Source: Acidobacteriota bacterium (lineage in GTDB: Bacteria > Acidobacteriota > UBA890 > WLXD01). From it: a DNA stretch of 64,000 bases. Within the stretch, counting starts at the first letter, position 1, and each line of letters begins with the position of its first letter. Positions 1-24,953 of the stretch are shown here, one piece after another. The translations under genes were made by a program, and so were the position numbers. The stretch spans positions 1 to 64,000 of the forward strand of contig CBDFKD010000001.1 in NCBI GenBank assembly GCA_965248695.1, written 5' to 3'. The notes beneath the pieces were generated by a model. That model had not been told where the DNA came from. It ran no database searches and saw nothing but the letters and a program-made list of their open reading frames with translations.

Positions 1-4
1 GGTG

Positions 5-23
5 GGTAGTGTCCCATTATGAA
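5..23. repeat. Putative terminal inverted repeat of the IS1-family element
   Basis: GGTAGTGTCCCATTATGAA resembles the GGTAGTG...TGAA ends I recall for this IS1 subgroup. It lies downstream of the transposase; no partner end found. Confidence 0.35.
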
Positions 24-77
24 AGTCACTGAAAGTCAGTTTGGTACGGATTTTGCTGGCCGTTTCGAGGAGCGTTT

Positions 78-539
78 GTGCCTGTTAGCCTAATGGAGGG
101 CGACAGCGCGCCGGATCGGAGTGATCTCAAAAAAATGATCACCGACTACGAAGCGGGCCGGATTTCGGCGTATGCCGAATGGGTAGCTTGGGGTGGTAAA
201 CCCATTGCCGAGGTCGGAGCGCGCAACATCGCGAGCGAAGACTTGCCCGCGTTCGCCAGCGAGCTACAGACTCTCTTGTCCTCGCTATCGCTGCCGATCA
301 GCGGGTTCCTCTTGGAGGTCGAACGCGGCCAGTGGGCGCTAGGCGTATATCGTCACGCCTACGCCCTAGAAGCTCTCTTGGAGACGAGGAAGAGGTGCCC
401 CGATTGGGTAATGGGGCACCTCTTCGGTTACAACAGTGATGCGGTGTCGGGCTACGTTAGTGCTTCGTCGCCCTCACCAGAGTCCACGTCACAGCACGCC
501 GATGCATCGGACACGGTGGAAATCGTTCCCCTCGGCTGA
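78..539 (+). CDS. Hypothetical protein
   Basis: 153 aa ORF, GAGGAG upstream of GTG; 3' end overlaps the YjzC-like gene antisense. Confidence 0.5.
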   Translation: MPVSLMEGDSAPDRSDLKKMITDYEAGRISAYAEWVAWGGKPIAEVGARNIASEDLPAFASELQTLLSSLSLPISGFLLEVERGQWALGVYRHAYALEALLETRKRCPDWVMGHLFGYNSDAVSGYVSASSPSPESTSQHADASDTVEIVPLG

Positions 540-612
540 GGGCGATTTCGTAGCCGCAGTCGCTGGCCCGGTAGATCCCGGACGTGGTGGCAGTCTTGCC
601 TGTAGTTGGCAT
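457..612 (-). CDS. YjzC-family small protein
   Basis: GGGAGGAG RBS; TGKTATTSGIY...CG..IAL.RGERFPPCP...W pattern typical of YjzC. Confidence 0.7.
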   Translation of the reverse strand: MPTTGKTATTSGIYRASDCGYEIALSRGERFPPCPMHRRAVTWTLVRATKH

Positions 613-907
613 TGCAGTTACTCCTCCCGCATAATGCGGGCGCTGCGTTGCCACCCGACAGACGCACCGGGTGCGACTTGACGCTCAAGGTCAGAGCGGC
701 CTATGCTCCGACAGAGCATCAAAGTCCCGGCGCGCACTACGCCGGGTGACAACTGGTTTGGTCAAAGGCCCGACGGTGAACCCGTCGGGTCTTTGTTGTT
801 GTAGCCTGCGGGAAGTCCCGTGGTCAACATCACGACCACAACATGTTGGGGGTCATCATCAACAGGAGCGCCACCCGTTGTGGATATCCTGTGGAAATCA
901 CCGAGCA

Positions 908-1744
908 TTAGTAGCCCGCCTCGAAGGCCAGCAGGTCGTCCATCGCCAACTCGGTACTAACTACTTCGGCCACAACGGCCGGCGTGCTCCGCAGGCTGTC
1001 GTGAATCCGCACGAAGTTGTACCAGGCGAAGTGCAGCGACACAGCGGCTTCCAGGTTGCGCAGCGACTTTGAGAAGCCGTTCGTCAGCCGGGTGAACCGT
1101 CGCATACTCATCCGCATGGTCAGGTTCTGACGCTCGACGTAGCTCGTGGAGATCGCCTCCGGATCTGGATCTCCGGCCACAACCTGAGTTGTGCAGTGGC
1201 TGACCCTTGGTGGTGAGTAACGTCCGAAGGATGGATTCGTGGCCGTATAGCTCTTGGTCTGCTGTGCGTAGTCGATACCACGAGCCGCCACGACTCCGAG
1301 AGCGGCCTTGTAGCCAGCGAAAGCGTCCGTGGTCAGTTGGAACGGCCCGTCGATCCTACGGGCCAGCTCCGAGATCATCTGGTAGGAGTTGTAGCCGTCG
1401 CGCTTGCCGACGATCCAATGCGGCACCAACTTCGTTTCGGCATCGAGCGCGACGAAAACCCATTGATCACCATGCTTGGGATTCACGCGCTTGCCGGACC
1501 TGATCACCGTGGCCTGCTTCTTCTGGACGTAGGTCCAGATTTCATCGACCTGGAGATCGTCAAGGCGCAAACCGGTGAACCGCTCGCGCATCATGGCTTC
1601 GCAGCCTTCACCTACCCGCACGAGCAGCCGGCAGATCGTGTCTCGGTGACAGCCGGTCATGCGCTCGATGCTGCGGATGCTGTTGCCCTCCACCAGGGCG
1701 GCGATGATCATGCGCTTCTTCTCGGGGGCCAGTACGTTCGCCAT
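908..1744 (-). CDS. IS1-family DDE transposase
   Basis: N-terminal HTH (LVEGNSIRSIERMTG), QVDEIW, QLTTD, ISTSYVERQNLTMRMSMRRFTRLTNGFSK motifs. Confidence 0.9.
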   Translation of the reverse strand: MANVLAPEKKRMIIAALVEGNSIRSIERMTGCHRDTICRLLVRVGEGCEAMMRERFTGLRLDDLQVDEIWTYVQKKQATVIRSGKRVNPKHGDQWVFVALDAETKLVPHWIVGKRDGYNSYQMISELARRIDGPFQLTTDAFAGYKAALGVVAARGIDYAQQTKSYTATNPSFGRYSPPRVSHCTTQVVAGDPDPEAISTSYVERQNLTMRMSMRRFTRLTNGFSKSLRNLEAAVSLHFAWYNFVRIHDSLRSTPAVVAEVVSTELAMDDLLAFEAGY

Positions 1745-1975
1745 CGGTCTTGCTCCGGATGGCGGGCAGGACCACAATGGCTGTGAGGGTCCGATGCGGC
1801 CTATGCCCGCGTCTTGGATCTAGCCCGGTTCGCTGTTCGTGCAGCGGGCCGGGCGACTTATAGGTGGCCGGGGAGCATCGTGAGACGCACCCCGGCCCCT
1901 TCGGCGTTCAGGGATGCGCTGACGGTGGTGCTCGCGCTATCATCTGACCCTCCTTGCTGTCAGGGGAGAAAGGTG

Positions 1976-2050
1976 AGGCCCCGCCCGGTGTCGAACCGGG
2001 ATCTCGGGATTTCCAGTCCCGCGACTTGACCGTCTGTTGTCCACGAGGCC
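1976..2050 (-). tRNA. tRNA-like gene, anticodon GGA (Ser) on a short-variable-arm, U73 (tRNA-Cys-like) body
   Basis: Acceptor GGCCTCG/CGGGGCC, D stem GAC/GTC, anticodon stem CGGGA/TCCCG with loop CT-GGA-AA, 4-nt variable loop AGAT, T arm CCCGG-TTCGACA-CCGGG, discriminator T, no encoded CCA. Confidence 0.85.
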
Positions 2051-2101
2051 ATCACAAGTTGTCGGAGCCCGTCGCTGTTACCGCAGCGGCGGGCTCTTTG
2101 T

Positions 2102-2569
2102 TCAGAACGGTGGCCTAGCCTTCTCCTTTTCCATGGCCTCTTTCTCGGCCAGGTCCATGTCTTGTTCTTCCAAGTCAGCCTCGGCATCAAGACCGTAAGA
2201 CTCCTTACCTCGGTCCGATACGCGAACGATCCCCCATCCGCCAGTCTTCTCCAGTTCGCCGCGCTCGATGGCGCGGTTAATCGCCGCCCGAACACCGCTA
2301 TCAGACATATGGCCGAGCCGCATGGCGTTCTTGTGCGTGAGGATGTCCCGGACGCGCCATTCCCGACCATCTTGATTGGCCAGGTATCTCATCAAGTCTC
2401 GGTCTACCTGTTCGGCACGCACGCGCTTGATGCCAGGCGGCTTCGTGGCGTCACCGAGATACTCGCGGATATCGTCACGATCAAGCAGAGCCTGTCGATC
2501 GAGCTGAAGCCAAAGCATGGCGCGCTGGTCGTTTACGTCGTCCAATTCCACCCCTAAGACTACGACCAG
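2102..2569 (-). pseudogene. Probably 5'-truncated gene with a winged-helix-like C-terminal domain
   Basis: Frame stays open up to the IS3 end at 2570; SDSGVRAAINRAIERGELEKTG resembles a wHTH. Confidence 0.45.
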
Positions 2570-3259: not shown

Positions 3260-3579
3260 GTGCCGGAGGATCTCAACTCGCCCGGCCTGGCACCAACCAG
3301 CGGCCCCGCAAGCCCGGCACGATCAGGCTGGCGAGCGCTATGTGGGCATCGCCTTAATTCTTTAGTGCGCCCGTAAGCTTCACACCGAAGAGGCCCCCAT
3401 TTGCAATCGCGCATAGAATGAAGATGTTACGGGGCCACTCGGGTACAAAATAAGGCTGGAGCATTTCAAGACTGGCAAACGTCACAGTGACGAGCGATAG
3501 AGGAAAGATGCGGATCGCAAGCCACGTTGTAGCACGCTCCCGCGCCCAAGCGGTTGCGCTCGCACCCACATTGGGGAGT

Positions 3580-3978
3580 TCATTTGCCGGCTTCGGGGGC
3601 AACGAAGATCTCCTTCGCATCGTGTGGTGACAGCGTGATTTCCCGGTCCTCGTTATCGCCGATGTAACCAACGTCTGCGAGCGTCACAGTTCTTCCAACA
3701 TCTTCCGGTGCTACCACGATGCTCAGAGGCAGTTCGGAGGATCTCGGAAACATGTACATTCGCGTTAGGAAGCCGCGATTCACAGCCTCAGCCAACTCAG
3801 CGGCAGCAACGTCTTTCGTGATGCCTTCGATGCTCGCGTATTCAGCTACGTCCAAATAGCGCCCCCCCGTTCGACGGTATACAGTCTCGATCTCGTCAAG
3901 GTCGCCTAGGTGCCGTAGTAGCCACCTATAGAGATGTTTAAGACGCCACAAATCGAACGAACTCTTGGAGCTTTCCAT
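3580..3978 (-). CDS. Hypothetical protein
   Basis: 132 aa globular-looking ORF overlapping the end of the upstream gene. Confidence 0.6.
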   Translation of the reverse strand: MESSKSSFDLWRLKHLYRWLLRHLGDLDEIETVYRRTGGRYLDVAEYASIEGITKDVAAAELAEAVNRGFLTRMYMFPRSSELPLSIVVAPEDVGRTVTLADVGYIGDNEDREITLSPHDAKEIFVAPEAGK

Positions 3979-4690
3979 CGGCCAGCTGTGCAGTAGTTAT
4001 TATTTCGCCAGCTGCTGGATGCAAAATTAACCTTGAATCAGCTGGGATTCCATGCAGCCCTTCGCGGAACCGGAGCACGAGCTTGGTAAGGGTTTCGGCC
4101 TCCTCGATCTTGTCAAAGCTCTCGCGATGCACCGAACGGAGGCCGGGACGCTCCTGCACCGTTCCCACTGTACTATGCTCCGTGTCGACCACGGGACGGC
4201 CGTCCTGGCGCTCAATGTAGCCACTGGCATACGTGTCGACGGGATAGTTGCCATCCTCCTTTACCTTGCCGTGCGCTGGAAGGAGAACATCTAGTAGGTG
4301 CAAACCACCTGTCGAGAGATAGACGACGATCTCGCCCGGTTCGCGCGGATTGTCGGCCCATTGGTCGAGAGCGACACGGTCAACTCTGTAGCCCTCGGGG
4401 TCCAGGTATTCGACGAGCACCCGAACCCTGACATCGTGCTCAGTGTCGTTGGCCATGTAGACCGTCAGCAGTGTTGTGGGACGACCCTCGGCAGCCTCGC
4501 ACCACGACCCGCTAATGCCGAGACCCGGCAGGTATTCGAGTCTATCGTCATCTTGACAGAACCAGCGTTCGTCCATCTCATACCGATCGATGCGGACCGG
4601 ATTAGCTACTACCTCAACTGCTGGTTCATTGGTCGGAGTTCCGCAGGCGACTCCCAGGAGTATTGGCACGACCAGTAGGAGTCGATACAT
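3938..4690 (-). CDS. Putative lipoprotein
   Basis: GGGAGGG RBS; signal peptide with lipobox LLGVAC. Confidence 0.75.
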   Translation of the reverse strand: MYRLLLVVPILLGVACGTPTNEPAVEVVANPVRIDRYEMDERWFCQDDDRLEYLPGLGISGSWCEAAEGRPTTLLTVYMANDTEHDVRVRVLVEYLDPEGYRVDRVALDQWADNPREPGEIVVYLSTGGLHLLDVLLPAHGKVKEDGNYPVDTYASGYIERQDGRPVVDTEHSTVGTVQERPGLRSVHRESFDKIEEAETLTKLVLRFREGLHGIPADSRLILHPAAGEIITTAQLADGKLQEFVRFVAS

Positions 4691-4704
4691 CTGGAGCCCT
4701 CCCA

Positions 4705-4767
4705 GTTCAGTGTTCACGCGACTCTCGGGTGAGGGTGGTTCATCTCACGAACCGCGCTTTGGTCATC
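4705..4767 (-). repeat. Leader repeat copy 0 (degenerate)
   Basis: Plus strand GTTCAGTGTTCAC-GCGACTCTCGGGTGAGG...GCGCTTTGGTC aligns to the copy at 6248. Confidence 0.65.
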
Positions 4768-5590
4768 TGGGCTGCACCTTGACGTAAGGCGCAGCCGCCC
4801 AGGCTCGGTATCCGTCGTCCAGCTGAATCAGGTACCAAGTGACGTTGCTCTGAGACCTCCGCAGAACCGCGACTTGGGTCGAGTGTGGAACTGTCTTGCG
4901 CAACAAATCGCCCTCGAGACCGCCCGGCGCTGCAAAGAGCGGATAGTTTGCCAGCGTCAGATCTTCGTTCTCGATGATTGCCGTTGCCTCGAACGATTCC
5001 CCTAGCGTTGACATCACGCGGTCTCGGGACTCCGCGAGATCAGCGCTCAGCGTGCTCTGTCCGGCGTAATCGCAGCGTTCTAGAACGCGGCTGGTCGCTG
5101 CGGTGAAACCAGCGAGAGAGAAGAGCTTCGTGATCGCCATGGACGCGCTGTTGTAGGTACGTGCCGCGATCCGCGTTCCCGACTTGGATTGTTCGATAAG
5201 TGCTTGTGCTGAACTCCCGGACGCAATGCCTAATCGCCAGTCTAACCTCGTCATCCCGCCCGTAAAGTGAACCCGCACTCGCTCGGAGATGGGATCGTTG
5301 CGGTCCACGCGGTAGATCACCTCTTTTTGGTCGTCGGTACCCGTGTACTCGAACCGGAGAGCAAGAAGCAATTCGAGGTTCCCATTAGCACGACACACTA
5401 GAGCGAGCGTCGCGTCGTCCGCTTCCGTCGCAGCCACCGTCTCGACCGAGTCATCAATGGCGTCCATGCGATCGAAGACTTGCCAATCACCGTGTGCGGA
5501 GGCGTTGTTGTGGGTGTCCTGAGCTTTAGCGGCTACTTCCGTACTCGCGATGATGAGCAGGCTTAGGATTGCTAGGACGGGTGCTTTCAT
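4763..5590 (-). CDS. Secreted protein, VasI/IalB-like domain plus C-terminal SH3-like domain
   Basis: Signal peptide; GDWQV...TLALVC...VIYRVD...FSLAGF..A...VLERC; C-terminal VAVL...WYLIQLDDGYRAW. Confidence 0.6.
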   Translation of the reverse strand: MKAPVLAILSLLIIASTEVAAKAQDTHNNASAHGDWQVFDRMDAIDDSVETVAATEADDATLALVCRANGNLELLLALRFEYTGTDDQKEVIYRVDRNDPISERVRVHFTGGMTRLDWRLGIASGSSAQALIEQSKSGTRIAARTYNSASMAITKLFSLAGFTAATSRVLERCDYAGQSTLSADLAESRDRVMSTLGESFEATAIIENEDLTLANYPLFAAPGGLEGDLLRKTVPHSTQVAVLRRSQSNVTWYLIQLDDGYRAWAAAPYVKVQPR

Positions 5591-5622
5591 TTTGAAGAAA
5601 CATCTCCCGGTTCGGTTTCCCC

Positions 5623-5684
5623 GTTCAGCGTTCACCGGCCCCGCATGGAGGTCGGCCTGTAGCGTGTAGGGTCTCTTGGTCTTC
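5623..5684 (-). repeat. Leader repeat copy 1 (lacks first hairpin)
   Basis: Plus strand GTTCAGCGTTCACCGG...GGTCGGCCTGTAGCGTGTAGG. Confidence 0.85.
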
Positions 5685-5689
5685 GCCAT

Positions 5690-6160
5690 CTACTGACCTG
5701 TGGGTGCCTGTACGAACTGACCGTTGGTCAAAATAATGTCTGGCTCATACGGCACGTTCGGCCAACGGTCTGGCGGCGGTGGTCCAGGCTGACCGTCGCT
5801 ACCTCGTGACGTAATGCTGTAGGTGTCAGAGTCAGTAACGTAGATGAAGGAGTTGCCCCAACCATCGACCGGTAGCACTTCGGGCATGTAATCGAGAGTA
5901 CCGAGTTCTCCCAGCGATTCAGCATAGCGCCCGGTGTCAACACGCATGACTCCGTTCGCGGTAGCAATTTCGCGCATGGCAGCCATGGTTTGGCCCTGTA
6001 GGCCGTGCTGTATAGCATCGGAAGCACCAGAGGTGAACAGAACCCCTAAGATGATAAGGATTCCGACCCCCAATATGACAGTTGTAGCTACGCCGAGAAA
6101 AAACCAAATTACGCGCGTGGTTACCAAAGACTTGGAATAGGTGCCAACGTCAGATTCCAT
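5690..6160 (-). CDS. GspG-like pseudopilin-domain protein
   Basis: Single N-terminal TM; LPVDGWGNSFIY...YSITSRGSDGQPG matches the T2SS G domain; no clear prepilin GFTLxE site. Confidence 0.75.
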   Translation of the reverse strand: MESDVGTYSKSLVTTRVIWFFLGVATTVILGVGILIILGVLFTSGASDAIQHGLQGQTMAAMREIATANGVMRVDTGRYAESLGELGTLDYMPEVLPVDGWGNSFIYVTDSDTYSITSRGSDGQPGPPPPDRWPNVPYEPDIILTNGQFVQAPTGQ

Positions 6161-6247
6161 GTGCTAATCCTGTTCTCCACTGAAATCTCCGGCGTGCAGA
6201 AATCATAGAAGCGTCTTCCCCGTCCATCTGACCAGCCCCCTCCCCCT

Positions 6248-6325
6248 GTTCAGCGTTCACCGACCCTCGGGTGAGGTCGGCCTGTAGGGTGGTAGGGCCT
6301 GCCGTAGCAGGCGCTTTCGGTCCTC
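6248..6325 (-). repeat. Leader repeat copy 2
   Basis: Two hairpins GCCTGC-TACG-GCAGGC and GCCGACC...GGTCGGT, then GAACGCTGAAC. Confidence 0.9.
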
Positions 6326-6382
6326 TGTCGCGGTGCCATACTTCACGATCAGCCCCTCGTCTTTCAGGCACAGGAAACCGCG

Positions 6383-7264
6383 CTACTTGTTCCAGCTGTG
6401 GTAGACGGGGATCGTCCCGCCGAACAGTTCCTTGAACTCCAACCGGCATGTCTTCATGGCCGGGTTCCAGTTCACCATTACTGTGAGTGGAGAAGTCTGG
6501 TTCGCCAGGATCGGGTTGTAATCGATCACTGCATTCCCCGACGTAACGAACTGGCCGTTTGAGTCGTAACAGCTGGCAACCGCGGTGACGTTCTCAAGGG
6601 CGTTGCCTGCAATGTTCTTTACGGATCCCTCGACGATCGCGAACTGACTCCGGTGGCTCCAACTGAATGCCGTGAGCTCGACAGAGGCCTCAGCACGGGC
6701 ACGGCGCTGGGCAGCCGCTCGCGCCTCACGTTGCCGTTCCTCTTCTGCTTCGGCGATTAGCCGTTCTAGATTGCGAAGGTCCCGACGCGCTTTGCTCGCG
6801 ACGGACGTGTCTTCGAAGGTGTTGGCGACCGCCTCCAAGTGAGTCTTTGCGCCGTCAAGATTAGTTCCCGTGTCGATAAGCAGTCCAGCCGCCTTGTATT
6901 TCTGCGCTGCTTGATTCTCTCGGGTGTTCTTCCGTAATTCTGTGGCTGCCTCCTCCACCGACGATCCTGGCCACCGACTAAGGAGTTCATCCAGCACCTT
7001 CTCTGCTTCGACCCAGGAGTTCGATTTCATAAGCTCCAGGGCCCGTTGATAATACGCCGCGTCGGTTTCGCTGAGGCTTGCAACCTCCGCCCGGAGCGTC
7101 TCGGTCTCCGCGGTCAAGTTCGCGACCTCCTCAAGGACCCGATCGTGCTCCTCCTGGGCAACGCCGCAAGCTGCTGTTGCCAGGACAAGGGGTGTAACTG
7201 CTAGCAATGCTGCGGTGTAGTAGATGCTGCGTGGCACAGAGGCTGCTGCTATTAGGTTTTTCAA
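6383..7264 (-). CDS. Lipoprotein with TPR-like repeats and C-terminal FxLYD domain
   Basis: Lipobox LATAAC; helical repeats; IVEGSVKN...NVTAVASCYDSNG...ILANQTSP. Confidence 0.75.
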   Translation of the reverse strand: MKNLIAAASVPRSIYYTAALLAVTPLVLATAACGVAQEEHDRVLEEVANLTAETETLRAEVASLSETDAAYYQRALELMKSNSWVEAEKVLDELLSRWPGSSVEEAATELRKNTRENQAAQKYKAAGLLIDTGTNLDGAKTHLEAVANTFEDTSVASKARRDLRNLERLIAEAEEERQREARAAAQRRARAEASVELTAFSWSHRSQFAIVEGSVKNIAGNALENVTAVASCYDSNGQFVTSGNAVIDYNPILANQTSPLTVMVNWNPAMKTCRLEFKELFGGTIPVYHSWNK

Positions 7265-7280
7265 AGTAAGCTACGCTCCC

Positions 7281-7456
7281 GTTCAGCGTTCGCCGATTCC
7301 GCATGCGACCGGCCTGTAGCGCATAGAGCCTACCGTAGCAGGCGCTTTCGGTCCTCCGTTGCGCCGCCATGCGCGCCTTCTCATCTTCTCCTTGTGTTAG
7401 CAGACAAATGTCTATTATGGTCGCCCGCTTGGTTACGCGCATACTACTCGCTCCGC
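7281..7456 (-). repeat. Leader repeat copy 3 plus duplicated promoter block
   Basis: Core repeat at 7281-7356; 7401-7456 is identical to 9051-9106. Confidence 0.9.
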
Positions 7457-7580
7457 CCGCAGGATCTGTCGAACTTGTCTCATCGGTAGCCTCTTGGTTG
7501 CCATCCATCGCTCCTCCTGGCGTTAGGAGGCGCCATGGTGCCGCACTTGCTACCGATGGATCCCTGCTCTCAGATCCTCG

Positions 7581-7693
7581 CGATCGGCTCCGAAATGAGC
7601 GATCGCGATGGTCCGAAACCAGTGATCGGCATCAACCGAAATCCGTGATCGCGATAAACCGAAACGGGCGATCGGGATGCTCCGAAATACGCA
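7581..7693. mobile_element. IS21-family terminal remnant
   Basis: Five GATC..CCGAAA units at mostly 23-bp period ending in ...AATACGCA (TGCGTATT end); no istAB. Confidence 0.75.
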
Positions 7694-8152
7694 CAAGGTG
7701 GGCAATGCTCTTGCTTCCCTCCAACTCATCGAGGAAGGAATCCTCAGCGAGGATGATTTCGACGGGTTGACTACGAAGCAGGCCGAGAAATTCCTTCAGG
7801 ATGCTCTCCGAGGACCTTGAACTGTCCGACGAGAGTCCCCATCGGTGGCATGCCGTCGCGACCCGTCCGGGTTCCGTTCGCACTTGAGACCGAGTACGTA
7901 GGCTCACCGACCGCCACCAAAGCCGCGCTCTACAAGAAGCGGGTCAAGCAGATCAGCGATTACGAGCCTGCGCGTCCCAAGTCGAATTTACGATTGAGAT
8001 AAGTCCACCGAAACCCGGTTACTGTCGACGATCACGAAACATGAATCAATGAATTCCTGTGTCGTTATCTCAAAGTCGACGAGCTTCTTAATGTCGCTGG
8101 CCAACGCGTAGATGGCGACAACGGGGCGTTGCGGCGGCGCTTCATCGAGTGT
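7694..8152 (-). pseudogene. Gene fragments (start-less C-terminal piece; ORF cut by the IS21 end)
   Basis: ...VVAIYALASDIKKLVDFEITTQEFIDSCFVIVDSNRVSVDLSQS* has no start; ILKEFLGLL...IAHLV runs into the IS end. Confidence 0.35.
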
Positions 8153-8163
8153 CTAGGAGAGCT

Positions 8164-8928
8164 TCACTCGAGCCTCGTCAGAAGGGCTGCTGCGATTTCC
8201 ATGCAGTCGAGCCTTGGCATGCCCGCGATAATCGACTCCTCCATTGCTCCGAGAAAGGCCAGGTGCGTCATCGTCTTGCCGTTCTTGGCGAGGTCCCCGA
8301 CTGAGAACACCGCGATGTCGGTGAGGCTGGGACCATTCGTCGTATCTCGCCTCTGTTGGCACTTGGACTCCAGGCTGGAGAGAACGGCGTCGAACTGCTG
8401 AATCAGGCGTCGCTCGACCGTTCGTGTTCCGACCTGAATCGAAGCGATCTTCGCTTCCGCCGGCGAAGCAGCTGTTACATCAACGGTCGTCGAGGTTGGT
8501 GGACGGCTAGTGGCACTAGATCCCGAGGAGGTGTTCGGTCGAGATGAGGCTTTGGGGGTCGTGGTCTGCGGCGCGGGCGCAACAATCCTCCCTACGTAGC
8601 TGAGTAGCCCAAGTACTACTAGAACCAAGACAACCAACCTGAACGCCGCTTGCTTATGAACCGGCGGTGCCGCATGGCCGGAGTCGGCAACCGTCACTGC
8701 AGGCGGATCTGCCGCTGCAGCTGCGGGTTCCTCGGGGATCGCATCCGTACTCGCCGCCGCTACCTCGTCCGGCAGGCTGTCCGCTGAGGGTTGATCCGAG
8801 ATCGGCGAAGACTCAACGTCGGCGGCCGACTCCTGAGCCGCTACCGCTGCAGCGAATCCGCACTGCGGACAGGCTGCCGCCTGGTCGGAAATCTGAGCCT
8901 TGCATTCAGGGCATTCGATCAGAGCCAA
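8164..8928 (-). CDS. Zinc-ribbon, single-TM membrane protein
   Basis: MALIECPECKAQISDQAAACPQCG, acidic linker, TM, Ser/Thr-rich stalk. Confidence 0.85.
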   Translation of the reverse strand: MALIECPECKAQISDQAAACPQCGFAAAVAAQESAADVESSPISDQPSADSLPDEVAAASTDAIPEEPAAAAADPPAVTVADSGHAAPPVHKQAAFRLVVLVLVVLGLLSYVGRIVAPAPQTTTPKASSRPNTSSGSSATSRPPTSTTVDVTAASPAEAKIASIQVGTRTVERRLIQQFDAVLSSLESKCQQRRDTTNGPSLTDIAVFSVGDLAKNGKTMTHLAFLGAMEESIIAGMPRLDCMEIAAALLTRLE

Positions 8929-8941
8929 CGTCAGTCTCCCC

Positions 8942-9106
8942 GTTCAGCGTTCACCGATCCCGCATGAGTATCGGCCTGTAGCGTGTAGAGCCTACCGTAG
9001 CAGGCGCTTTCGATTCCTCCCAGCGTCGCTCTTGTCTCCTCTTGTGGCAACAGACAAATGTCTATTATGGTCGCCCGCTTGGTTACGCGCATACTACTCG
9101 CTCCGC
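8942..9106 (-). repeat. Leader repeat copy 4 plus duplicated promoter block
   Basis: Core at 8942-9012; block has a CATAAT -10-like hexamer and the palindrome AGACA-TT-TGTCT. Confidence 0.9.
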
Positions 9107-9158
9107 AACCGGAAGCAGCCCCTCGTCTCCCGGTTCGGGATGCTGGGAGGCAGAGGAC

Positions 9159-9287
9159 ATGGAGTGGTGGTCGTTCGGAATCGGGTTGGTAATCGGATGG
9201 CTTTCGTTCACGCCCATCGCAATCGCCGCGTACACACGTGGCCTATGTAAAGGCGTGGATGTTGTTAAAAGTCTTCGAAAGTTATGA
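9159..9287 (+). CDS. Small membrane peptide (42 aa)
   Basis: AGAGGA RBS; MEWWSFGIGLVIGWLSF hydrophobic segment; convergent with repressor 1. Confidence 0.5.
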   Translation: MEWWSFGIGLVIGWLSFTPIAIAAYTRGLCKGVDVVKSLRKL

Positions 9288-9653
9288 GTCCACACCATCA
9301 ACTATCAGTTCCCACGATCTAACCTCGGCCACGAACTCTTCGACCGACATACCGTAGCGCTTCGCTAGTGTTTCGGCATCGCGCTTGAGCCTGTCATGAA
9401 GCTCCGAGGCGTTGCTGCTCGTTGCCGCTACGCGTAGGGGCTTACCATCCGGGTCAATGAACAGAGCGGCCACAGGCACGCCTAAGCCGTCTTCGGCGAG
9501 CCTGCGAAGCGTCTCTAGCTGGACGTTTGTCTGCTGTCCCGTTTCCAGCCTTGAGATCGCGGCAGCATCGATTCCTGTGCGCAGCTGAATCTGCCCCTGG
9601 CTCCGGCCGCACTCCTTACGGAGACGGCGGATGTTCTCCCCAAGGGCGATCAT
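9282..9653 (-). CDS. XRE/CI-like repressor 1
   Basis: LGENIRRLRK...SQ...TGID...ISRLETG..NVQLETL HTH_3 pattern. Confidence 0.9.
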   Translation of the reverse strand: MIALGENIRRLRKECGRSQGQIQLRTGIDAAAISRLETGQQTNVQLETLRRLAEDGLGVPVAALFIDPDGKPLRVAATSSNASELHDRLKRDAETLAKRYGMSVEEFVAEVRSWELIVDGVDS

Positions 9654-9779
9654 CCGACCACCTTACGAGGGTGTCTTAGAAAACAACAAGATTTCTTTAA
9701 AACAAGACTTGTTTCGTAAAGCAATAGCGTTTAGGATCATTGTATGATTAAACAATGTTCTTCAACACACATAGTCGCT
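9654..9779. promoter_or_regulatory. Divergent promoter/operator region 1
   Basis: AT-rich; palindrome AAACAAG-A-CTTGTTT; TAAGGT 6 nt before the repressor ATG. Confidence 0.7.
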
Positions 9780-9995
9780 ATGGAAGAGAACACGCCGCTT
9801 CAAACCGCCCTCGACGAGCTCGGGAAGCCTCAGTCGTGGCTCGCCAGCAAGACCGGTCTTGACCGCGCTCATGTGAATCGACTGTGTCGAGGAAAGGCCG
9901 ACAACAAGGATCTGACCAACGGGGTTTGCCAGCGTGTGTCTCGTGCTGTCGGGAAGCCTGTTGAAGTGCTTTTCCCTGTGCCTGAGGCCGCCTAG
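9780..9995 (+). CDS. Cro-like HTH protein 1
   Basis: QSWLASKTGLDRAHVNRLCRG...VEVLF; divergent from repressor 1. Confidence 0.85.
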   Translation: MEENTPLQTALDELGKPQSWLASKTGLDRAHVNRLCRGKADNKDLTNGVCQRVSRAVGKPVEVLFPVPEAA

Positions 9996-10007
9996 GAAGC
10001 CCCATCC

Positions 10008-10066
10008 ATGACGCTACCGAGCCCCACCACCCCCACGCCACTGCGGAATCAGGCAGACGGCGCAGT
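10008..10066. repeat. Post-cro boundary repeat copy 1 (also 10716-10774; diverged at 12763-12823)
   Basis: 55/59 identity between the first two copies. Confidence 0.9.
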
Positions 10067-10079
10067 GGGGGGCGTACGG

Positions 10080-10352
10080 CTAGTCGAGCTCGTGGCCGCA
10101 CTTGGGGCAGGTGCGATTGGCTGCCGTCAACTCGGCAGCGGGCGTGGGGTCGTCGGTGAGACCGACCAAGTAATCGATCGAGACGCCAAAGATACGCGCA
10201 GCCCGCACGACAGACTCGAATCGCAGGCTCGATTGGTTGCTCTCGACGCGCGAGATCACCGACTGGTCGTATCCGCCACCGAGCTCGATGGCCAGGTCGA
10301 TTTGGGTAAGGCCCGCCCGTTTACGCAGCTTTGCCAGCCGTTCGCCGATCAC
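10080..10352 (-). CDS. XRE/CI-like repressor 2 with C-terminal CxxC
   Basis: IGERLAKLRKRAGLTQIDLA...ISRVESN...FGVSIDYLVG. Confidence 0.9.
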   Translation of the reverse strand: MIGERLAKLRKRAGLTQIDLAIELGGGYDQSVISRVESNQSSLRFESVVRAARIFGVSIDYLVGLTDDPTPAAELTAANRTCPKCGHELD

Positions 10353-10379
10353 ACGCGGAAAGTTATCAACAAAAAGATA

Positions 10380-10416
10380 TTGACAAATGCATACCGTACA
10401 TACATAGTTAATGTAT
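10380..10416 (+). promoter_or_regulatory. PR-like promoter and operator 2
   Basis: TTGACA-17-CATAGT overlapped by the palindrome ATACAT-N5-ATGTAT. Confidence 0.7.
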
Positions 10417-10429
10417 GGAGTGCATAGAC

Positions 10430-10708
10430 ATGAACCGCTCAATGAGCCTCAAGGGTTTTCCAAAGCTCCGAGCCCGGATCGCGGAACTTGGTGTGCGGCA
10501 AGGGGATGTCGCCGTGCAACTCGGTATTCACCCGACGCTCTTGAGCAGCATCCTGAACGGTCGCCGCCAACCGCCCGCCGATTTCGAGGCCAACGTCACC
10601 GCCGCTCTGGACCGCCTGGAAGCGGCCGAGAATGCGGCGGCGGAGGCACGGGAGCGGGTACTGGAGCAGACCGCCGACGAGCCAGCGCCAAGCACCGAAG
10701 CTGCCTAG
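10430..10708 (+). CDS. Cro-like HTH protein 2
   Basis: LRARIAELGVRQGDVAVQLGIHPTLLSSILNGRR. Confidence 0.85.
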   Translation: MNRSMSLKGFPKLRARIAELGVRQGDVAVQLGIHPTLLSSILNGRRQPPADFEANVTAALDRLEAAENAAAEARERVLEQTADEPAPSTEAA

Positions 10709-10866
10709 GAGCCCCATGACGCTACCGAGCCCCACCACCCCCACGCCACTGCGGAGTGAGGCGAACGGCGCAGTCAACCTCGACATCGTCAAGGTTTCGC
10801 GTGCAGCGCTGTTACGCGTTGGCGTGTACGTGACGCCGAGCTTTGATGACACGTGGTGCCCCCACC

Positions 10867-12754: not shown

Positions 12755-12762
12755 GAGGCCCG

Positions 12763-13179
12763 ATGACGCTACCGAAAGCAGGTACCCACACGCCACTGCG
12801 AAGGATCGGCCCGCGCGCAGTGGACGCCGCTCTTGCCTCCAGCCCTGCCGATGTCCTCACGCTGATCGAGTGCGATTCCTGCAACAGGAGGATCGAAGCG
12901 CCGCGCGATGAGTACTTGGCTTGTGGCGCCGTCGAGGAGTGGCTGGAGGAAGAGGGCTGGTGCCTGCGCGGCTACTTGGCCTATTGCCCCACCTGTGTGC
13001 GCCTGTGGCCGGTGTGCGATTCCTGCGACCAATCCACCCACCCACGCGAGATCGCCGATCACAACCCCCCGGTGGTGTGCATGGCCTGCGCGCAGTGGGA
13101 CGACGATCAGCGCCCCGACGACGATGGTGAGCTCGTCGCCGCCTTCGGCTCCCAGGCCGTGTTTGGAGTGGGGCGCTAG
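12763..13179 (+). CDS. Cys-rich phage protein (four CxxC)
   Basis: AGGAGG RBS; CDSC, CPTC, CDSC, CMAC. Confidence 0.7.
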   Translation: MTLPKAGTHTPLRRIGPRAVDAALASSPADVLTLIECDSCNRRIEAPRDEYLACGAVEEWLEEEGWCLRGYLAYCPTCVRLWPVCDSCDQSTHPREIADHNPPVVCMACAQWDDDQRPDDDGELVAAFGSQAVFGVGR

Positions 13180-13181
13180 CG

Positions 13182-13829
13182 ATGCGCCGCGTCAGGGGAT
13201 ACGAGATCAAGCCAGAAGCCGACCTCCAGGATGCCGATCTCCAGGATGCCGATCTCCAGGATGCCGACCTCTGGGATGCCGACCTCTGGGAAGCCGATCT
13301 CCGGGGAGCCTGCCTCCGGGATGCCGACCTCTGGGAAGCCGATCTCCGGGGAGCCTGCCTCCGGGATGCCGACCTTCGGGGAGCCGATCTCGGGTTTGCC
13401 GACCTCCAGGGAGCCGACCTCCAGGAAGCCGATCTGCGGGGAGCCGACCTGTCGAAAGCCAACCTCCGGGGTGCCAACCTCCAGGGAGCCAACCTCCAGG
13501 GTGCCGACCTACGGGGAGTCGGCCTCCGGGGTATCAAGCTGTCCGATACAACGATCCTGTCAACGGGCCAGACGTGGCCGGAGTACCTGGCGGACTTGCC
13601 AGCGCTTCTGACCGCCGGCGGCAAGCCTCTAGCAGCGGTGGCTACGGAAGCAGCCTGGAGCTGCCATGACTGGGACAACTGCCCGATGCATGTGGCCTTC
13701 GACGCCAAGGGTGTCGGCGACGTACCCGAGCCATGGCGGTCCCAGGCGAAGCTGTTTGTCGCCCTGTTCGACGCCGAGCTGATCCCGCTGGAGGCGGTGA
13801 GAGCCACGTCCATGAGCGGAGCGGAGTGA
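13182..13829 (+). CDS. Pentapeptide-repeat protein 1
   Basis: A(D/N)Lxx repeats; exact 45-bp tandem duplication at 13275-13364. Confidence 0.9.
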   Translation: MRRVRGYEIKPEADLQDADLQDADLQDADLWDADLWEADLRGACLRDADLWEADLRGACLRDADLRGADLGFADLQGADLQEADLRGADLSKANLRGANLQGANLQGADLRGVGLRGIKLSDTTILSTGQTWPEYLADLPALLTAGGKPLAAVATEAAWSCHDWDNCPMHVAFDAKGVGDVPEPWRSQAKLFVALFDAELIPLEAVRATSMSGAE

Positions 13830-22434: not shown

Positions 22435-22658
22435 GCGAACGACCGAGCCTCGATCTCGCCGAGCTACCCGACGGCGAGCTGATCGAGCTTCTGCTGGATG
22501 CGAGCCACCGGCGCTTCACGGAATGGGAGCTGGAGGTCCTGGACTCGATTGCAACGAGGCAGAGACGGCGGCTGCACCCGAGCGAGCGGGCGCTGTGCGA
22601 AGTGCTCGTGGTGCGGATCGGGGCGAGTCTGAATCAGACAACGCGGAGGGCGTCGTGA
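22431..22658 (+). CDS. Phage hypothetical protein
   Basis: AGGAGG RBS, coupled. Confidence 0.6.
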
Positions 22659-23173
22659 CAGTCAACGGGTACGAAATAGAGCCGGGTGCGGATCTTCGGG
22701 GAGCCGATCTCCGGGATGCCGTCCTCCGGGGAGCCAACCTCCAGGGAGCCAAGCTTAGGGATGCCGACCTCCAGTGTGCCGATCTGCGGGGAGCCGACCT
22801 GTCGGAAGCCAACCTTTGGGGAGCCAACCTCCGGGGAGCCGACCTTCAGGGAGCCAACCTCGGGGGAGCCTGCCTCCAGCTCGCCGGCCTGTCGAACAAC
22901 ACAGTTCTGCCAACGGGGCAGACGTGGCCGGAGTACTTGGCGGATCTGCCCGCGCTTCTGACGGCCGGCGGTAAGCGCCTACACGAGGTCGCCACGCCCG
23001 AGGTCTGGAGCTGCCATAGCTGGAAAAACTGTCCGATGCGTGTGGCCTTCGACGCCAAGTGCTTCGTCGACGTACCTGAGCCGTGGCGGGCTCAAGCGGA
23101 GCTGTTCGTCACCCTGTTCGACACCAATCTGATCCCGCTACCGGCGGTGCAACCGGCGGAGAAGGCATCATGA
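22655..23173 (+). CDS. Pentapeptide-repeat protein 2
   Basis: Paralog of 13182-13829 including the C-terminal domain. Confidence 0.9.
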
Positions 23174-23681: not shown

Positions 23682-24079
23682 CCGAGCCGGCGCGCCTGTG
23701 GACGGCTGACGAAGCTGCGAAGTATCTGAGCGTCTGTCCAGAGACCGTGCGAACCAAGGCCAAGGCTGGTGAGATTCCATCCTGTAGGATCGGGCGACTA
23801 CTCCGGTTCGATCGTGAACTGTTACGGAGGTGGGTGCATGACCAAAGCGTTCCATCCGGCGCCCGCCCCGTGTCGGGTCCGGGGCAAGACGATATGGGAG
23901 GTGGACTGCCGACCGTGGGCCGCGCTGATGAATCGCCTGGGCGAGCCGAAGCGTCGGAGGTTCAAGAGCGAGGAAGCCGCCCGCGATTGGTGTCAGGATC
24001 TGATCGTCGCTCGAAAGATGGGGCGAAAGATCGCATCCCAAGAGGTAGCGGTCTCTTCGTTCGTCGACCGCTTCCTTAG
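23678..24079 (+). CDS. xis: Excisionase-like HTH_17 protein
   Basis: WTADEAAKYLSVCPETV...GEIPSCRIGRLLRF. Confidence 0.8.
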   Translation: MTEPARLWTADEAAKYLSVCPETVRTKAKAGEIPSCRIGRLLRFDRELLRRWVHDQSVPSGARPVSGPGQDDMGGGLPTVGRADESPGRAEASEVQERGSRPRLVSGSDRRSKDGAKDRIPRGSGLFVRRPLP

Positions 24080-24953
24080 AGCATGCGACCGATCCGACAA
24101 GGCACCACTCACCGTCAAGCTGTACGGCGACGTGCTCATCAAGTCGTTCTCTCCGTTCATGCGAGAGGTCGGGTGCGACTACCTGGACCAAGTGTCGCCG
24201 CTGCAGATCGAGGAGTACCGCCAGCACCTCGCCTCCTTCTGCGCGCCGGCCACGGTCCGAACGTGGATGACGATCGTGCGCGCCGCCTTCACCTGGGGCG
24301 TGAAGCTCAACCTGTTCGACGCCAACCCGGTGAAGGGGCTTGTACCCAAGGCGGTGCCGAGCGACAAGCGCTCACTCACCGATGCGGAGCGCAAGCTGAT
24401 CATCACGAAGGCACCGAGCCGGGACATCTGGCTGGCGTACCTACTCACCGGACTACGCGCTTCGGAGTTCGGCAATCTGCCGGTTGCGGCCGTGAAAGTG
24501 GTCCACGATTCCGCAGCGCATCTCGTGGTGAAGGGCAAGGGATCCAAGAAGCGCATCGTCTACCTCGAGGGGCAGGCTATCGAGCACTTCCGCAAGCTGG
24601 TGGCTACTGCTCAGGCTCGCGACGACGTGATGGTGGCGCCGTGTCGGACCAACACGCTGCAAGGTCGCTGGATCAAGGAGCGCGACGAGCTCGGGCTACC
24701 TCCCGACATCTCCATCCACACGTTTCGCCACACTTACGGCACGTACATGGCGCAGAGGGATCTGGTCGGAACGCAGCGAGCGATGGGGCATTCCAAGATC
24801 ACGACGACAATGGGATACGTGCATCCGGACGACCGTCTGATACGCGAAACGTCGGCGCAGTGGAGCGCAGCATTGCACAGGGATAAACAAAGTGGTGGTA
24901 CTAAATCGGTACCAGAATCTGAGAGAGTCAATGGTACCAATGGCAAAGGCTAA
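23838..24953 (+). CDS. int: Tyrosine integrase
   Basis: TGLRASE, KGSK, HTFRH, GH, TTMGY catalytic motifs. Confidence 0.93.
   Translation: MTKAFHPAPAPCRVRGKTIWEVDCRPWAALMNRLGEPKRRRFKSEEAARDWCQDLIVARKMGRKIASQEVAVSSFVDRFLRACDRSDKAPLTVKLYGDVLIKSFSPFMREVGCDYLDQVSPLQIEEYRQHLASFCAPATVRTWMTIVRAAFTWGVKLNLFDANPVKGLVPKAVPSDKRSLTDAERKLIITKAPSRDIWLAYLLTGLRASEFGNLPVAAVKVVHDSAAHLVVKGKGSKKRIVYLEGQAIEHFRKLVATAQARDDVMVAPCRTNTLQGRWIKERDELGLPPDISIHTFRHTYGTYMAQRDLVGTQRAMGHSKITTTMGYVHPDDRLIRETSAQWSAALHRDKQSGGTKSVPESERVNGTNGKG

Follow-up and report, generated by a model that had tools for sequence, protein, structure and literature searches.

Why should genes for dissimilar membrane and secreted proteins, lying side by side in one bacterial prophage, each be preceded by the same noncoding sequence? 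The question is raised by a 64,000-nt stretch of DNA (hereafter, the window) from an Acidobacteriota bacterium (GTDB lineage Bacteria; Acidobacteriota; UBA890; WLXD01), comprising positions 1 to 64,000 of the forward strand of contig CBDFKD010000001.1 in assembly GCA_965248695.1. The sequence in question, which we call the leader, is ~80 nt long, contains two small hairpins, and stands ahead of varied membrane- and secreted-protein genes. A preliminary description of the window, made from the sequence alone, had reported five copies upstream of different exported or membrane genes; four of these are clear, and the fifth, at 4705, is a degenerate 3' remnant. The leader is real, uncatalogued, narrowly distributed, and specific to one phage lineage. 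The proposition that it may serve this lineage both as an mRNA leader and translation-initiation module and as a patch of homology for the shuffling of gene cassettes seems to us about evenly poised.

Structure and Conservation of the Leader

Coordinates are those of the window, in which the leaders and the genes that they precede (the cargo genes) all lie on the minus strand (Table 1). Read in the sense of these genes, the leader has the consensus GGACCGAAAGC-[GCCUGC UACG GCAGGC]-UCUACACGCUACAG-[GCCGAYCUC ... GAGRRUCGGU]-GAACGCUGAAC, followed by a purine run (GGGGAG-like), 5-10 nt, and a start codon; the bracketed segments are hairpins 1 and 2, the latter bordered by ACGCUA and ACGCUG. Every resolved copy is on the sense strand and has at its 3' end an invariant GUGAACGCUGAAC and then a purine-rich ribosome-binding site. 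With a covariance model of the leader (R1), under which the window copies score 63-99 bits, 20 hits were obtained in all; behind 19 of them, as well as behind the remnant at 4705, an open reading frame (ORF) of at least 20 codons begins on the same strand, 12-34 nt past the GAAC core and behind the purine run.

A repeat finder grouped positions 5612-5674, 6237-6299, and 8931-8993, and also 6279-6336, 7310-7367, and 8972-9029. An nhmmer profile of the four window copies recovers the same four by construction (E 1e-28 to 3e-20) and, as an independent result, six additional copies (E 9e-24 to 3e-7) on contig C2 of the window's own genome (G000; 5.9 Mb, contigs C1 and C2). Alignment bears out the earlier remark that the copy at 5623 lacks hairpin 1, which is missing in 3 copies altogether. 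The remnant at 4705, missed both by nhmmer (E<=10) and by R1, retains the core in a GTGAACACTGAAC version and can be aligned to other leaders over its last ~40 nt; together with the signal-peptide start behind it, it matches in BLAST, at 88% over 93 nt, a full leader of G007, a genome from another genus of the same family. This copy and one at C2:2747351 are decaying.

Pairing was counted in 19 distinct leader sequences. Hairpin 1, with the UACG loop previously ascribed to it, is 96.9% paired and varies solely by G-C/G-U or C-G/U-G exchange; hairpin 2 is 92.9% paired. The compensatory changes proposed for hairpin 2 are present, one pair being C-G in 9 copies, U-A in 6, and U-G in 2, and the closing pair G-U in 16, A-U in 1, and G-C in 1. 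Two-sided changes amount to 9 cells, versus 3.2 +/- 2.1 in column shuffles (a value reached by 1 of 500 shuffles), and shifting the pairing partners by 1-3 columns lowers pairing from 92% to 23-49%. The ~29 G-U or U-G wobble cells assign the structure to the mRNA-sense strand, since on the other strand each of them would be an A-C mismatch.

Two further helices were tried and rejected: a 2-bp GC/GC helix, which adds little, and a 4-bp helix closing a four-way junction in the promoter-proximal copies, which is too weak and irregular. A third, promoter-proximal hairpin folds in 8 of 8 copies with variable sequence and shifting register and is not counted in the structure. In window 7313-7413 and the homologous promoter-proximal leaders, this short GC hairpin lies between the AUG of an upstream ORF (uORF; see below) and hairpin 1; its sequence differs by copy (GGUGC/GCACC, UGCGC/GCGCA, GCGCGU/GCGCGC), and its length is constant.

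Conservation along the leader is strongly uneven. Substituted cells are few in hairpin 1 (6 in 16 columns), the linker CUACACGCUACAGGCCG (9 in 18), and UCGGUGAACGCUGAAC (5 in 16), and many in the 5' flank (39 in 12 columns), the interior of hairpin 2 (37 in 14), and the Shine-Dalgarno (SD) region (27 in 6). The 11-mer GAACGCTGAAC is exact in all four strong window copies and in nearly all others, beside columns that vary in up to 8 of 15 copies. Variable columns fall by phase as 7/16/15, the uORF frame changing least at third positions; this lack of codon periodicity and the indels of 1 and 2 nt among the copies speak against a conserved peptide, which the preliminary description had ruled out from the indels.

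Could the most conserved part of the leader be a site on DNA? On this explanation, the invariant, asymmetric GGTGAACGCTGAAC would be bound as double-stranded DNA by a phage regulator, in the manner of the stoperators of cluster A mycobacteriophages (mentioned in PMC3203893), repressing or timing transcription of the gene array. Strict conservation of an asymmetric 14-mer, its occurrence in short intergenic spaces in one orientation relative to transcription, and the several helix-turn-helix (HTH) regulators encoded beside the array are consistent with this, as is the judgment, in a study of cluster K mycobacteriophages, that their extended start-associated sequence (ESAS) repeats are likelier to be DNA sites than RNA hairpins (PMC3203893). 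However, the cI/cro intergenic region has repeats of another type (AAACAAGAYTT-like) and lacks the motif, as does the rest of the prophage; the neighboring hairpins carry sense-strand wobbles, and the motif always abuts the SD sequence, which points to mRNA. We regard a role at the DNA level as quite unlikely.

As an RNA, the leader matches nothing in Rfam 15, the glycine riboswitch, c-di-GMP, Acido-1, and ribozyme families included: a gathering-score scan of the whole window returned two tRNAs only, and a scan of 4300-9600 at E<=10 gave two chance hits (mir-6715 and HOTTIP_3), both off the leaders. The element is accordingly uncatalogued, as first supposed, and the echo of the glycine aptamer that had been suggested at the same time finds no support. 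Other identities were considered and rejected: an RNA anti-CRISPR or solitary CRISPR repeat (a crude genome scan found no CRISPR array and one 80-nt tandem repeat only), a tRNA-end integration scar (the tRNA-Ser at 1975-2050 is dissimilar to the leader), mimicry of 16S rRNA (only GAACGCTG is in common with the 16S 5' end), and pairing with a trans-acting complementary RNA (the best complement in the first 26 kb, the leaders' own antisense aside, is an 11-mer at ~15532, about what chance would give). Elsewhere in the genome, at C2:2302406-2302540 (L002, 2406-2540), four iteron-like copies of CGGTGAACAYYGAAY within 135 nt superficially resemble the invariant 3' motif; the ORF beside them reads like orfA of an IS3-type (insertion sequence) transposase, and the cluster probably belongs to an IS3-type element, not to the leader.

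Phage Arrays and Their Variable Content

Leaders are restricted to the arrays of accessory genes in siphovirus-like prophages. Among the order's 26 genomes, only G000 and G007, both from soil Acidobacteriota, gave R1 hits, with 10 copies in each; four other genomes of G000's own genus are without the leader. The other 59 of 61 relatives yielded one weak R1 match only (G034, 27.6 bits), and a BLAST search with one copy and its upstream region hit 3 of the 61 related genomes, namely the source genome, G007 (10 places), and, weakly, G027 (E 0.001). Within the 5.9-Mb G000 genome, neither nhmmer nor R1 found a leader outside the prophage arrays. Scans for the exact patterns CTACAGGCCG/CTACAGGCYG-N10-24-GAACGCTGAAC returned 3 stretches in genome, 0 in viral, and 5 in metagenome contigs, all of them without hairpins and at a chance-level profile score, and a query with the pseudopilin-like cargo protein found no related locus in genome or viral contig collections. 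Since the leader occurs in two genomes of different genera and is absent from genomes of the same genus, its distribution follows a mobile element, not host descent.

Besides the array itself, the window contains within its first 24 kb a cI-like HTH gene, an early region in divergent orientation (PD-(D/E)XK nuclease, AAA_24, DUF1376, and DnaC-like genes), and an integrase gene. Large parts of this prophage recur on C2 at 95-99% identity, where the paralogue is a full prophage in the order head/tail/tape-measure genes, array, immunity region, early genes, integrase; the genes beside the C2 copy are those for head morphogenesis, scaffold, major head protein, major tail protein, and tape measure. 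The array is flanked by the late genes on one side and the immunity region on the other and shares the strand of the repressor gene, the usual position of accessory genes expressed in lysogeny. Eight arrays are present, four in each of G000 and G007, and all open with a conserved ~110-nt region that holds the palindrome AGACA-WW-TGTCT, of which the window has 2 versus 0.13 expected. From its position and conservation, we infer a promoter/operator role for this region.

The eight arrays do not carry the same genes, nor in the same order. The preliminary description had proposed comparing related prophages for gain and loss of cassettes at the repeats, naming a fixed gene order as counterevidence; what we find is variable content and homology that breaks at the leader edges. 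BLAST homology between arrays stops at the leader's 3' edge (5618-5619, 6241-6248, 7276-7281, and 8931-8939), and the breaks on the 5' side are ragged (5669-5674, 6319-6341, and 7350-7456). One case is particularly clear: window 5618-6332, consisting of a leader, a uORF, the pseudopilin-like gene, and a second leader, is 96.6% identical to G007. Downstream of that second leader come the SH3-like gene, the remnant leader, and a lipoprotein gene in the window, whereas in G007 a lipoprotein gene follows at once. As the leader is the only sequence common to otherwise unrelated cassettes, it would be the site at which homologous recombination swaps, inserts, or deletes them.

On an alternative view, a recombinase would insert and excise cassettes at the leaders, which would then be attC-like sites, and the locus would be an analogue of an integron. 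Cassette-like arrays, variable content (different gene sets in the eight arrays), and junctions at the repeat are all as this would have it, and the leader's GCTGAAC is one mismatch from the integron inverse core consensus, RYYYAAC. The leader, however, has only two local hairpins, with ends that do not pair, and so lacks the end-to-end imperfect inverted repeat of an attC site. The nearest and only tyrosine recombinase, at 23769-24953, lies 15 kb off at the prophage end, is a phage integrase by PHROG, and scores 38 bits with the integron integrase model TIGR02249, versus a cutoff of 265. The ragged 5' junctions are such as homologous exchange would give, and in short-read contigs (four runs from one sample) the breaks and joints at leaders represent other paralogous or related arrangements, with no circle-type joint, although these contigs are uninformative on excision. 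Site-specific recombination at the leader is, in our estimation, very improbable; of the earlier idea of an integron-like accumulation of cassettes, the variable content and the junctions at repeats stand, and the integron mechanism is not supported.

Candidate Roles of the Leader

If the arrays are assembled by homologous exchange at the leaders, what might the leader do for the gene behind it? One indication comes from short reading frames. Eight of the nine promoter-proximal copies carry AAGGAG-N2-3-AUG and a uORF of 31-36 codons that passes through both hairpins, and seven of these eight uORFs terminate at one of two UGAs in GGUGAACGCUGAAC, ~10-25 nt ahead of the cargo start, with frames that shift between copies. 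Two copies without hairpin 1 (5623 and G7_L016b) are opened instead by a TAG-AUG overlap with the preceding gene. Predicted translation through or up to the leader is a recurrent feature of the family, and the peptide is not conserved.

We propose that the leader is the common 5' leader of accessory ("moron"-type) genes in one lineage of temperate, siphovirus-like Acidobacteriota phages. Transcription of the array would run leftward from the repressor side and the palindrome-bearing promoter/operator-like region, so that the leader would form part of the mRNA, where its two short hairpins may insulate or stabilize the transcript. The strictly conserved, single-stranded CUACAGG ... GUGAACGCUGAAC, with a purine-rich SD 5-10 nt before the start codon, would supply a ready-made initiation region, and any gene placed behind the leader would therefore be expressed alike. 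In promoter-proximal copies, the uORF, with its own strong SD, would be translated through the hairpins and stop at a UGA in the invariant stretch; its translation may open the leader structure and couple to translation of the cargo gene.

Several points weigh against this proposal. There is no sigma-70 consensus promoter in the presumed promoter region: a scan of 3500-10500 found 2 sites versus 2.5 expected, neither in a leader, and the promoters of this phylum may differ from the consensus. Fold energy is clearly better than that of shuffled sequence in just 2 of 6 copies (z -2.4 and -2.2; the rest -0.9 to +1.0), and a candidate SD-masking helix is just 74% paired. The blocks compared above for conservation were chosen after seeing the data. 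The covariance model has an effective sequence number of 1.71, and the covariation, the product of few independent events, is modest, all copies being close kin from one phage lineage in two genomes; exchange of whole hairpins between copies could also mimic compensation. Finally, orthologous leaders of G000 and G007 show 6 differences in 83 nt and 8 in 73 nt, and the gene between them shows 5 substitutions and one 3-nt indel in 471 nt. That the leaders have diverged further than the gene that they enclose suits piecemeal exchange between copies, and it leaves purifying selection on the leader as a whole undemonstrated.

The same divergence favors the explanation that the leader is a neutral hitch-hiker, a common 5' flank left by cassette duplication and illegitimate or homologous recombination, which would persist through recency and gene conversion and would contribute an ordinary ribosome-binding site only. 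The restriction of the family to one phage lineage in two genomes, the mostly unremarkable fold energies, the two decaying copies, and the presence in the arrays of some cargo genes without any leader are on its side. It is at odds with the strongly uneven conservation, in which GAACGCTGAAC remains near-exact beside variable columns, with pairing kept through wobble and two-sided changes, and with the maintained distance to the start codon. We consider a purely passive origin rather unlikely.

A more active role would be that of a sensor, with the leader acting as a small riboswitch, a protein-binding translational operator, or a uORF-dependent attenuator that switches the envelope genes jointly. 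Junction and linker nucleotides are more conserved than stems, the distal part of hairpin 2 is variable, ACGCUA and ACGCUG flank that hairpin, and the uORF terminates inside the invariant motif, all of which would suit such an RNA; the multicopy, regulon-like layout also resembles the translational operators shared among genes in phage T4 and recognized by RegA. But 3 copies do without hairpin 1; searches for an alternative pairing, a terminator, or a convincing SD-masking helix found none; Rfam gave no match; and the first 26 kb held no complementary RNA partner longer than chance. A joint switch of this kind appears improbable.

We would give a similarly small chance to a more far-reaching reading, in which the leader would constitute a new class of small structured cis-regulatory RNA. 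The motif ACGCUA-hairpin-GUGAACGCUGAAC would then be read by a phage or host factor, or by translation of an Arg-rich uORF with its end in the invariant core, to switch a regulon for envelope remodeling, and the leader would act in addition as a recombinase-free, integron-like joint for gene capture, through which newly acquired cargo would come under the same switch.

Array Contents and Relation to Known Systems

The genes said at the outset to stand behind leaders (lipoprotein, VasI/SH3-like, GspG-like, FxLYD lipoprotein, and Zn-ribbon transmembrane [TM]) do have family matches, some of them weak or below cutoff, except for the first-named lipoprotein, which was recognized by its lipobox (Table 1). 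The SH3_3-like protein falls in phrog_1848 together with a VasI-domain protein of G007, and the signal peptide MYRLLLVVPILLGVACG is common to several lipoproteins with different mature parts, including some in G007. Further cargo in the arrays includes VasI-/SH3-like exported proteins and a TM2-domain protein; several cargo proteins match PHROGs of unassigned function, and one of 402 aa has no export signal evident on reading its N-terminal sequence.

Table 1. Leaders, reading frames, and adjoining features in the window
Feature	Position	Strand	Details
Leader copy 1	8936..9017	-	Full: hairpin 1, linker, hairpin 2, GUGAACGCUGAAC, SD; R1 97.1 bits; heads Zn-ribbon/TM gene
Leader copy 2	7275..7355	-	Full; R1 88.1 bits; heads FxLYD lipoprotein gene
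Leader copy 3	6242..6324	-	Full, intergenic; R1 98.9 bits; heads 25-codon uORF overlapping start of pseudopilin-like gene
Leader copy 4	5617..5690	-	Without hairpin 1; R1 63.3 bits; directly after TAG of pseudopilin-like gene (TAG-ATG); heads SH3/VasI-like gene
Remnant leader	~4699..4765	-	3' part of hairpin 2, GUGAACACUGAAC, SD; heads lipoprotein gene
33-codon uORF	7283..7384	-	AAGGAG-N3-AUG; through leader copy 2; ends at second UGA of GAACGCUGAAC
25-codon uORF	6150..6227	-	SD from leader copy 3; UGA overlaps start of next gene (AUGGAAUCUGA); identical in 4 copies
Protein with Zn-ribbon N-terminus and TM segment	8164..8928	-	254 aa, TTG start; PF13248 E 4.6e-5, below gathering score
FxLYD-domain lipoprotein	6383..7264	-	293 aa, TTG start; NF038353 24.6 bits vs cutoff 23
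GspG/pseudopilin-like protein	5690..6160	-	156 aa; PF08334 E 4.4e-6; TIGR01710 E 8e-7, below its cutoff
Exported protein with C-terminal SH3_3-like part	4763..5590	-	275 aa; SH3_3 weak, E 1e-4; frame open back to ATG at 5689
Lipoprotein	3938..4690	-	250 aa; lipobox read from sequence; signal peptide MYRLLLVVPILLGVACG
Promoter/operator-like region, first	9018..9152	-	Upstream of copy 1; palindrome AGACA-TT-TGTCT at 9052-9063; repeat D6; 9-way alignment
Promoter/operator-like region, second	7356..7456	-	Palindrome at 7402-7413; truncated upstream by 238-bp dispersed repeat 7457-7694
Single-TM ORF	9159..9287	+	42 codons; divergent, on far side of promoter/operator-like region; no family match
cI-like HTH_3 repressor gene	9282..9653	-	Directly upstream of array, same strand; PF01381 E 9e-11; PHROG transcriptional regulators

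In most arrays, a small single-TM ORF reads away from the palindrome region in the divergent direction and could be a partner of the array. In modules carrying it (L001, L003, L012, L014, and L009), a 5' region CCGGAAGCAGCCCCTCGTCTCCCGG ... GGGAGGC with SD is conserved in most, and the peptide varies. The 238-bp segment at 7457-7694, which separates the second promoter/operator-like region from decayed plus-strand gene fragments at 7700-8130, has two matches of 100% identity on C2 (near 337178 and 2754150) and is probably another small mobile insertion.

The prophage and its surroundings contain further repeats. Three plus-strand ORFs of the early region open with the same ~60 nt (ATGACGCTACCGAGCCCCACC..., repeat D3; 10006-10066, 10714-10774, and 12761-12821), which are also found in the C2 prophages and represent a second, coding type of shared gene start in the same phage. 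Genes for pentapeptide-repeat proteins, likewise in the early region (13173-13576 and 22650-22900; Pfam E 1.6e-42 and 9e-24), appear as a 15-nt periodic DNA repeat and have paralogues in every C2 prophage copy. An ~315-bp element at 2570-2884, with >60 copies on C2 that are mostly 100% identical and a diverged subfamily at ~79-82%, looks like a very recently active repeat resembling a miniature inverted-repeat transposable element. Window 3-2561, which carries an IS-type transposase gene and tRNA-Ser(GGA), corresponds to G000:C2:5222489-5219932 over 2.56 kb at 99.96% identity; given this near-identity to a C2 prophage, the end of contig C1 is probably a repeat-induced assembly break inside a prophage. 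The C2 prophage also has an ~290-nt gap between its scaffold and major head genes (L063, 905-3115; G000:C2:5196905-5199115), in which R1 has no match and which represents a different element of the same phage.

How does the leader relate to repeated elements already described in phages and bacteria? Stoperators are 13-bp repressor-binding DNA sites that are scattered genome-wide and related to the true operator. Like the leader motif, those of cluster A mycobacteriophages are short, asymmetric, and conserved, lie within small gaps between genes in the direction of transcription, and recur many times in each phage. The leader motif differs from them in its dissimilarity to the repeats of the cI/cro region and in being tied to an SD and to RNA hairpins. 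Integron attC sites share with the leader an organization in which a repeated structured element separates promoterless genes arrayed in one orientation, but the leader locus has no R''/L''-L'/R' palindrome, integron integrase, or attI, and the leader is conserved in sequence, not in structure alone.

Promoter-early stem-loop (PeSL) cassettes of T4-type phages, reportedly a subject of work by Comeau and colleagues in 2014 (PMC4122927), are closer. According to Arbiol et al. (2010, PMC2839356), a PeSL runs from an upstream stop codon through a promoter and stem-loop to an SD, lies in hyperplastic regions, and mediates modular shuffling. The leader is similar in being a repeated intergenic motif of hyperplastic regions that leads from an upstream stop codon via a stem-loop to an SD and the start of an ORFan. 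In both, segments inserted, deleted, or replaced between related phages end at the motifs, as at recombination joints; the leader has the stem-loop and the 3' SD, in plastic regions with motif-bounded indels. On the other hand, PeSLs as described there possess a sigma-70 consensus promoter and a terminator-grade stem-loop, whereas the leader has no consensus promoter, stems of 6-9 bp, and no U tract. Only the first leader of each array stands behind a promoter-like region, the phages are temperate prophages and not lytic myoviruses, and mini-circles were not observed for leader cassettes, the short-read contigs being uninformative on excision.

The cargo genes recall the morons of lambdoid and other temperate phages, which are described as accessory, horizontally shuffled, prophage-expressed genes between the late genes and the immunity region, often with envelope or exclusion functions (PMC3594210). 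Classical morons differ in being independent, each with its own promoter and terminator, and are not known to have a common leader sequence.

The start-associated sequences (SAS) of cluster K phages are 13-bp asymmetric sequences located 3-7 bp before the starts of unrelated nonstructural genes, and half of them have 17-bp inverted repeats upstream (ESAS); what they do is still unverified (Pope et al. 2011, PMC3203893; Front Microbiol 2025, PMC12699233). The leader and SAS/ESAS are alike as conserved asymmetric sequences that occur many times in a phage genome, always oriented the same way and ending shortly before unrelated nonstructural genes begin. Both include or abut the ribosome-binding site, with a subset bearing inverted repeats just upstream, and neither occurs in the host outside the phage. 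The defining properties of an SAS (asymmetry, single orientation, position before starts, and absence elsewhere in the host) are all found in the leader. The two are unrelated in sequence, the SAS, GGGATAGGAGCCC, having no match at <=2 mismatches in the leader consensus. They differ also in length (~80 nt vs 13 bp plus 17-bp repeats), in that the leader hairpins keep RNA pairing with G-U wobbles and the ESAS repeats do not, and in placement, the leader being confined to the lysogeny-side accessory array and SAS occurring over the whole right arm. The leader's host phylum, Acidobacteriota, sets it apart as well.

A full-text search of the literature found no description of the leader, the SAS and PeSL supplements being outside the scope of that search. 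Start-associated motifs in phage accessory regions, that is, SAS/ESAS and PeSL, have been known for 15 years, and their working is still unsettled. To these the leader adds another example, the third, which is unrelated to either and comes from a soil phylum that has been little studied; neither of the other two has hairpins that maintain pairing as RNA or a uORF terminating within the invariant core. If the proposed role is correct, it would show temperate phages standardizing the expression of newly captured envelope genes while reshuffling them, and it would provide a compact, portable expression leader for Acidobacteriota. Judged by its sequence and arrangement, the leader is an analogue of SAS/ESAS and PeSL, sharing their kind and belonging to neither.

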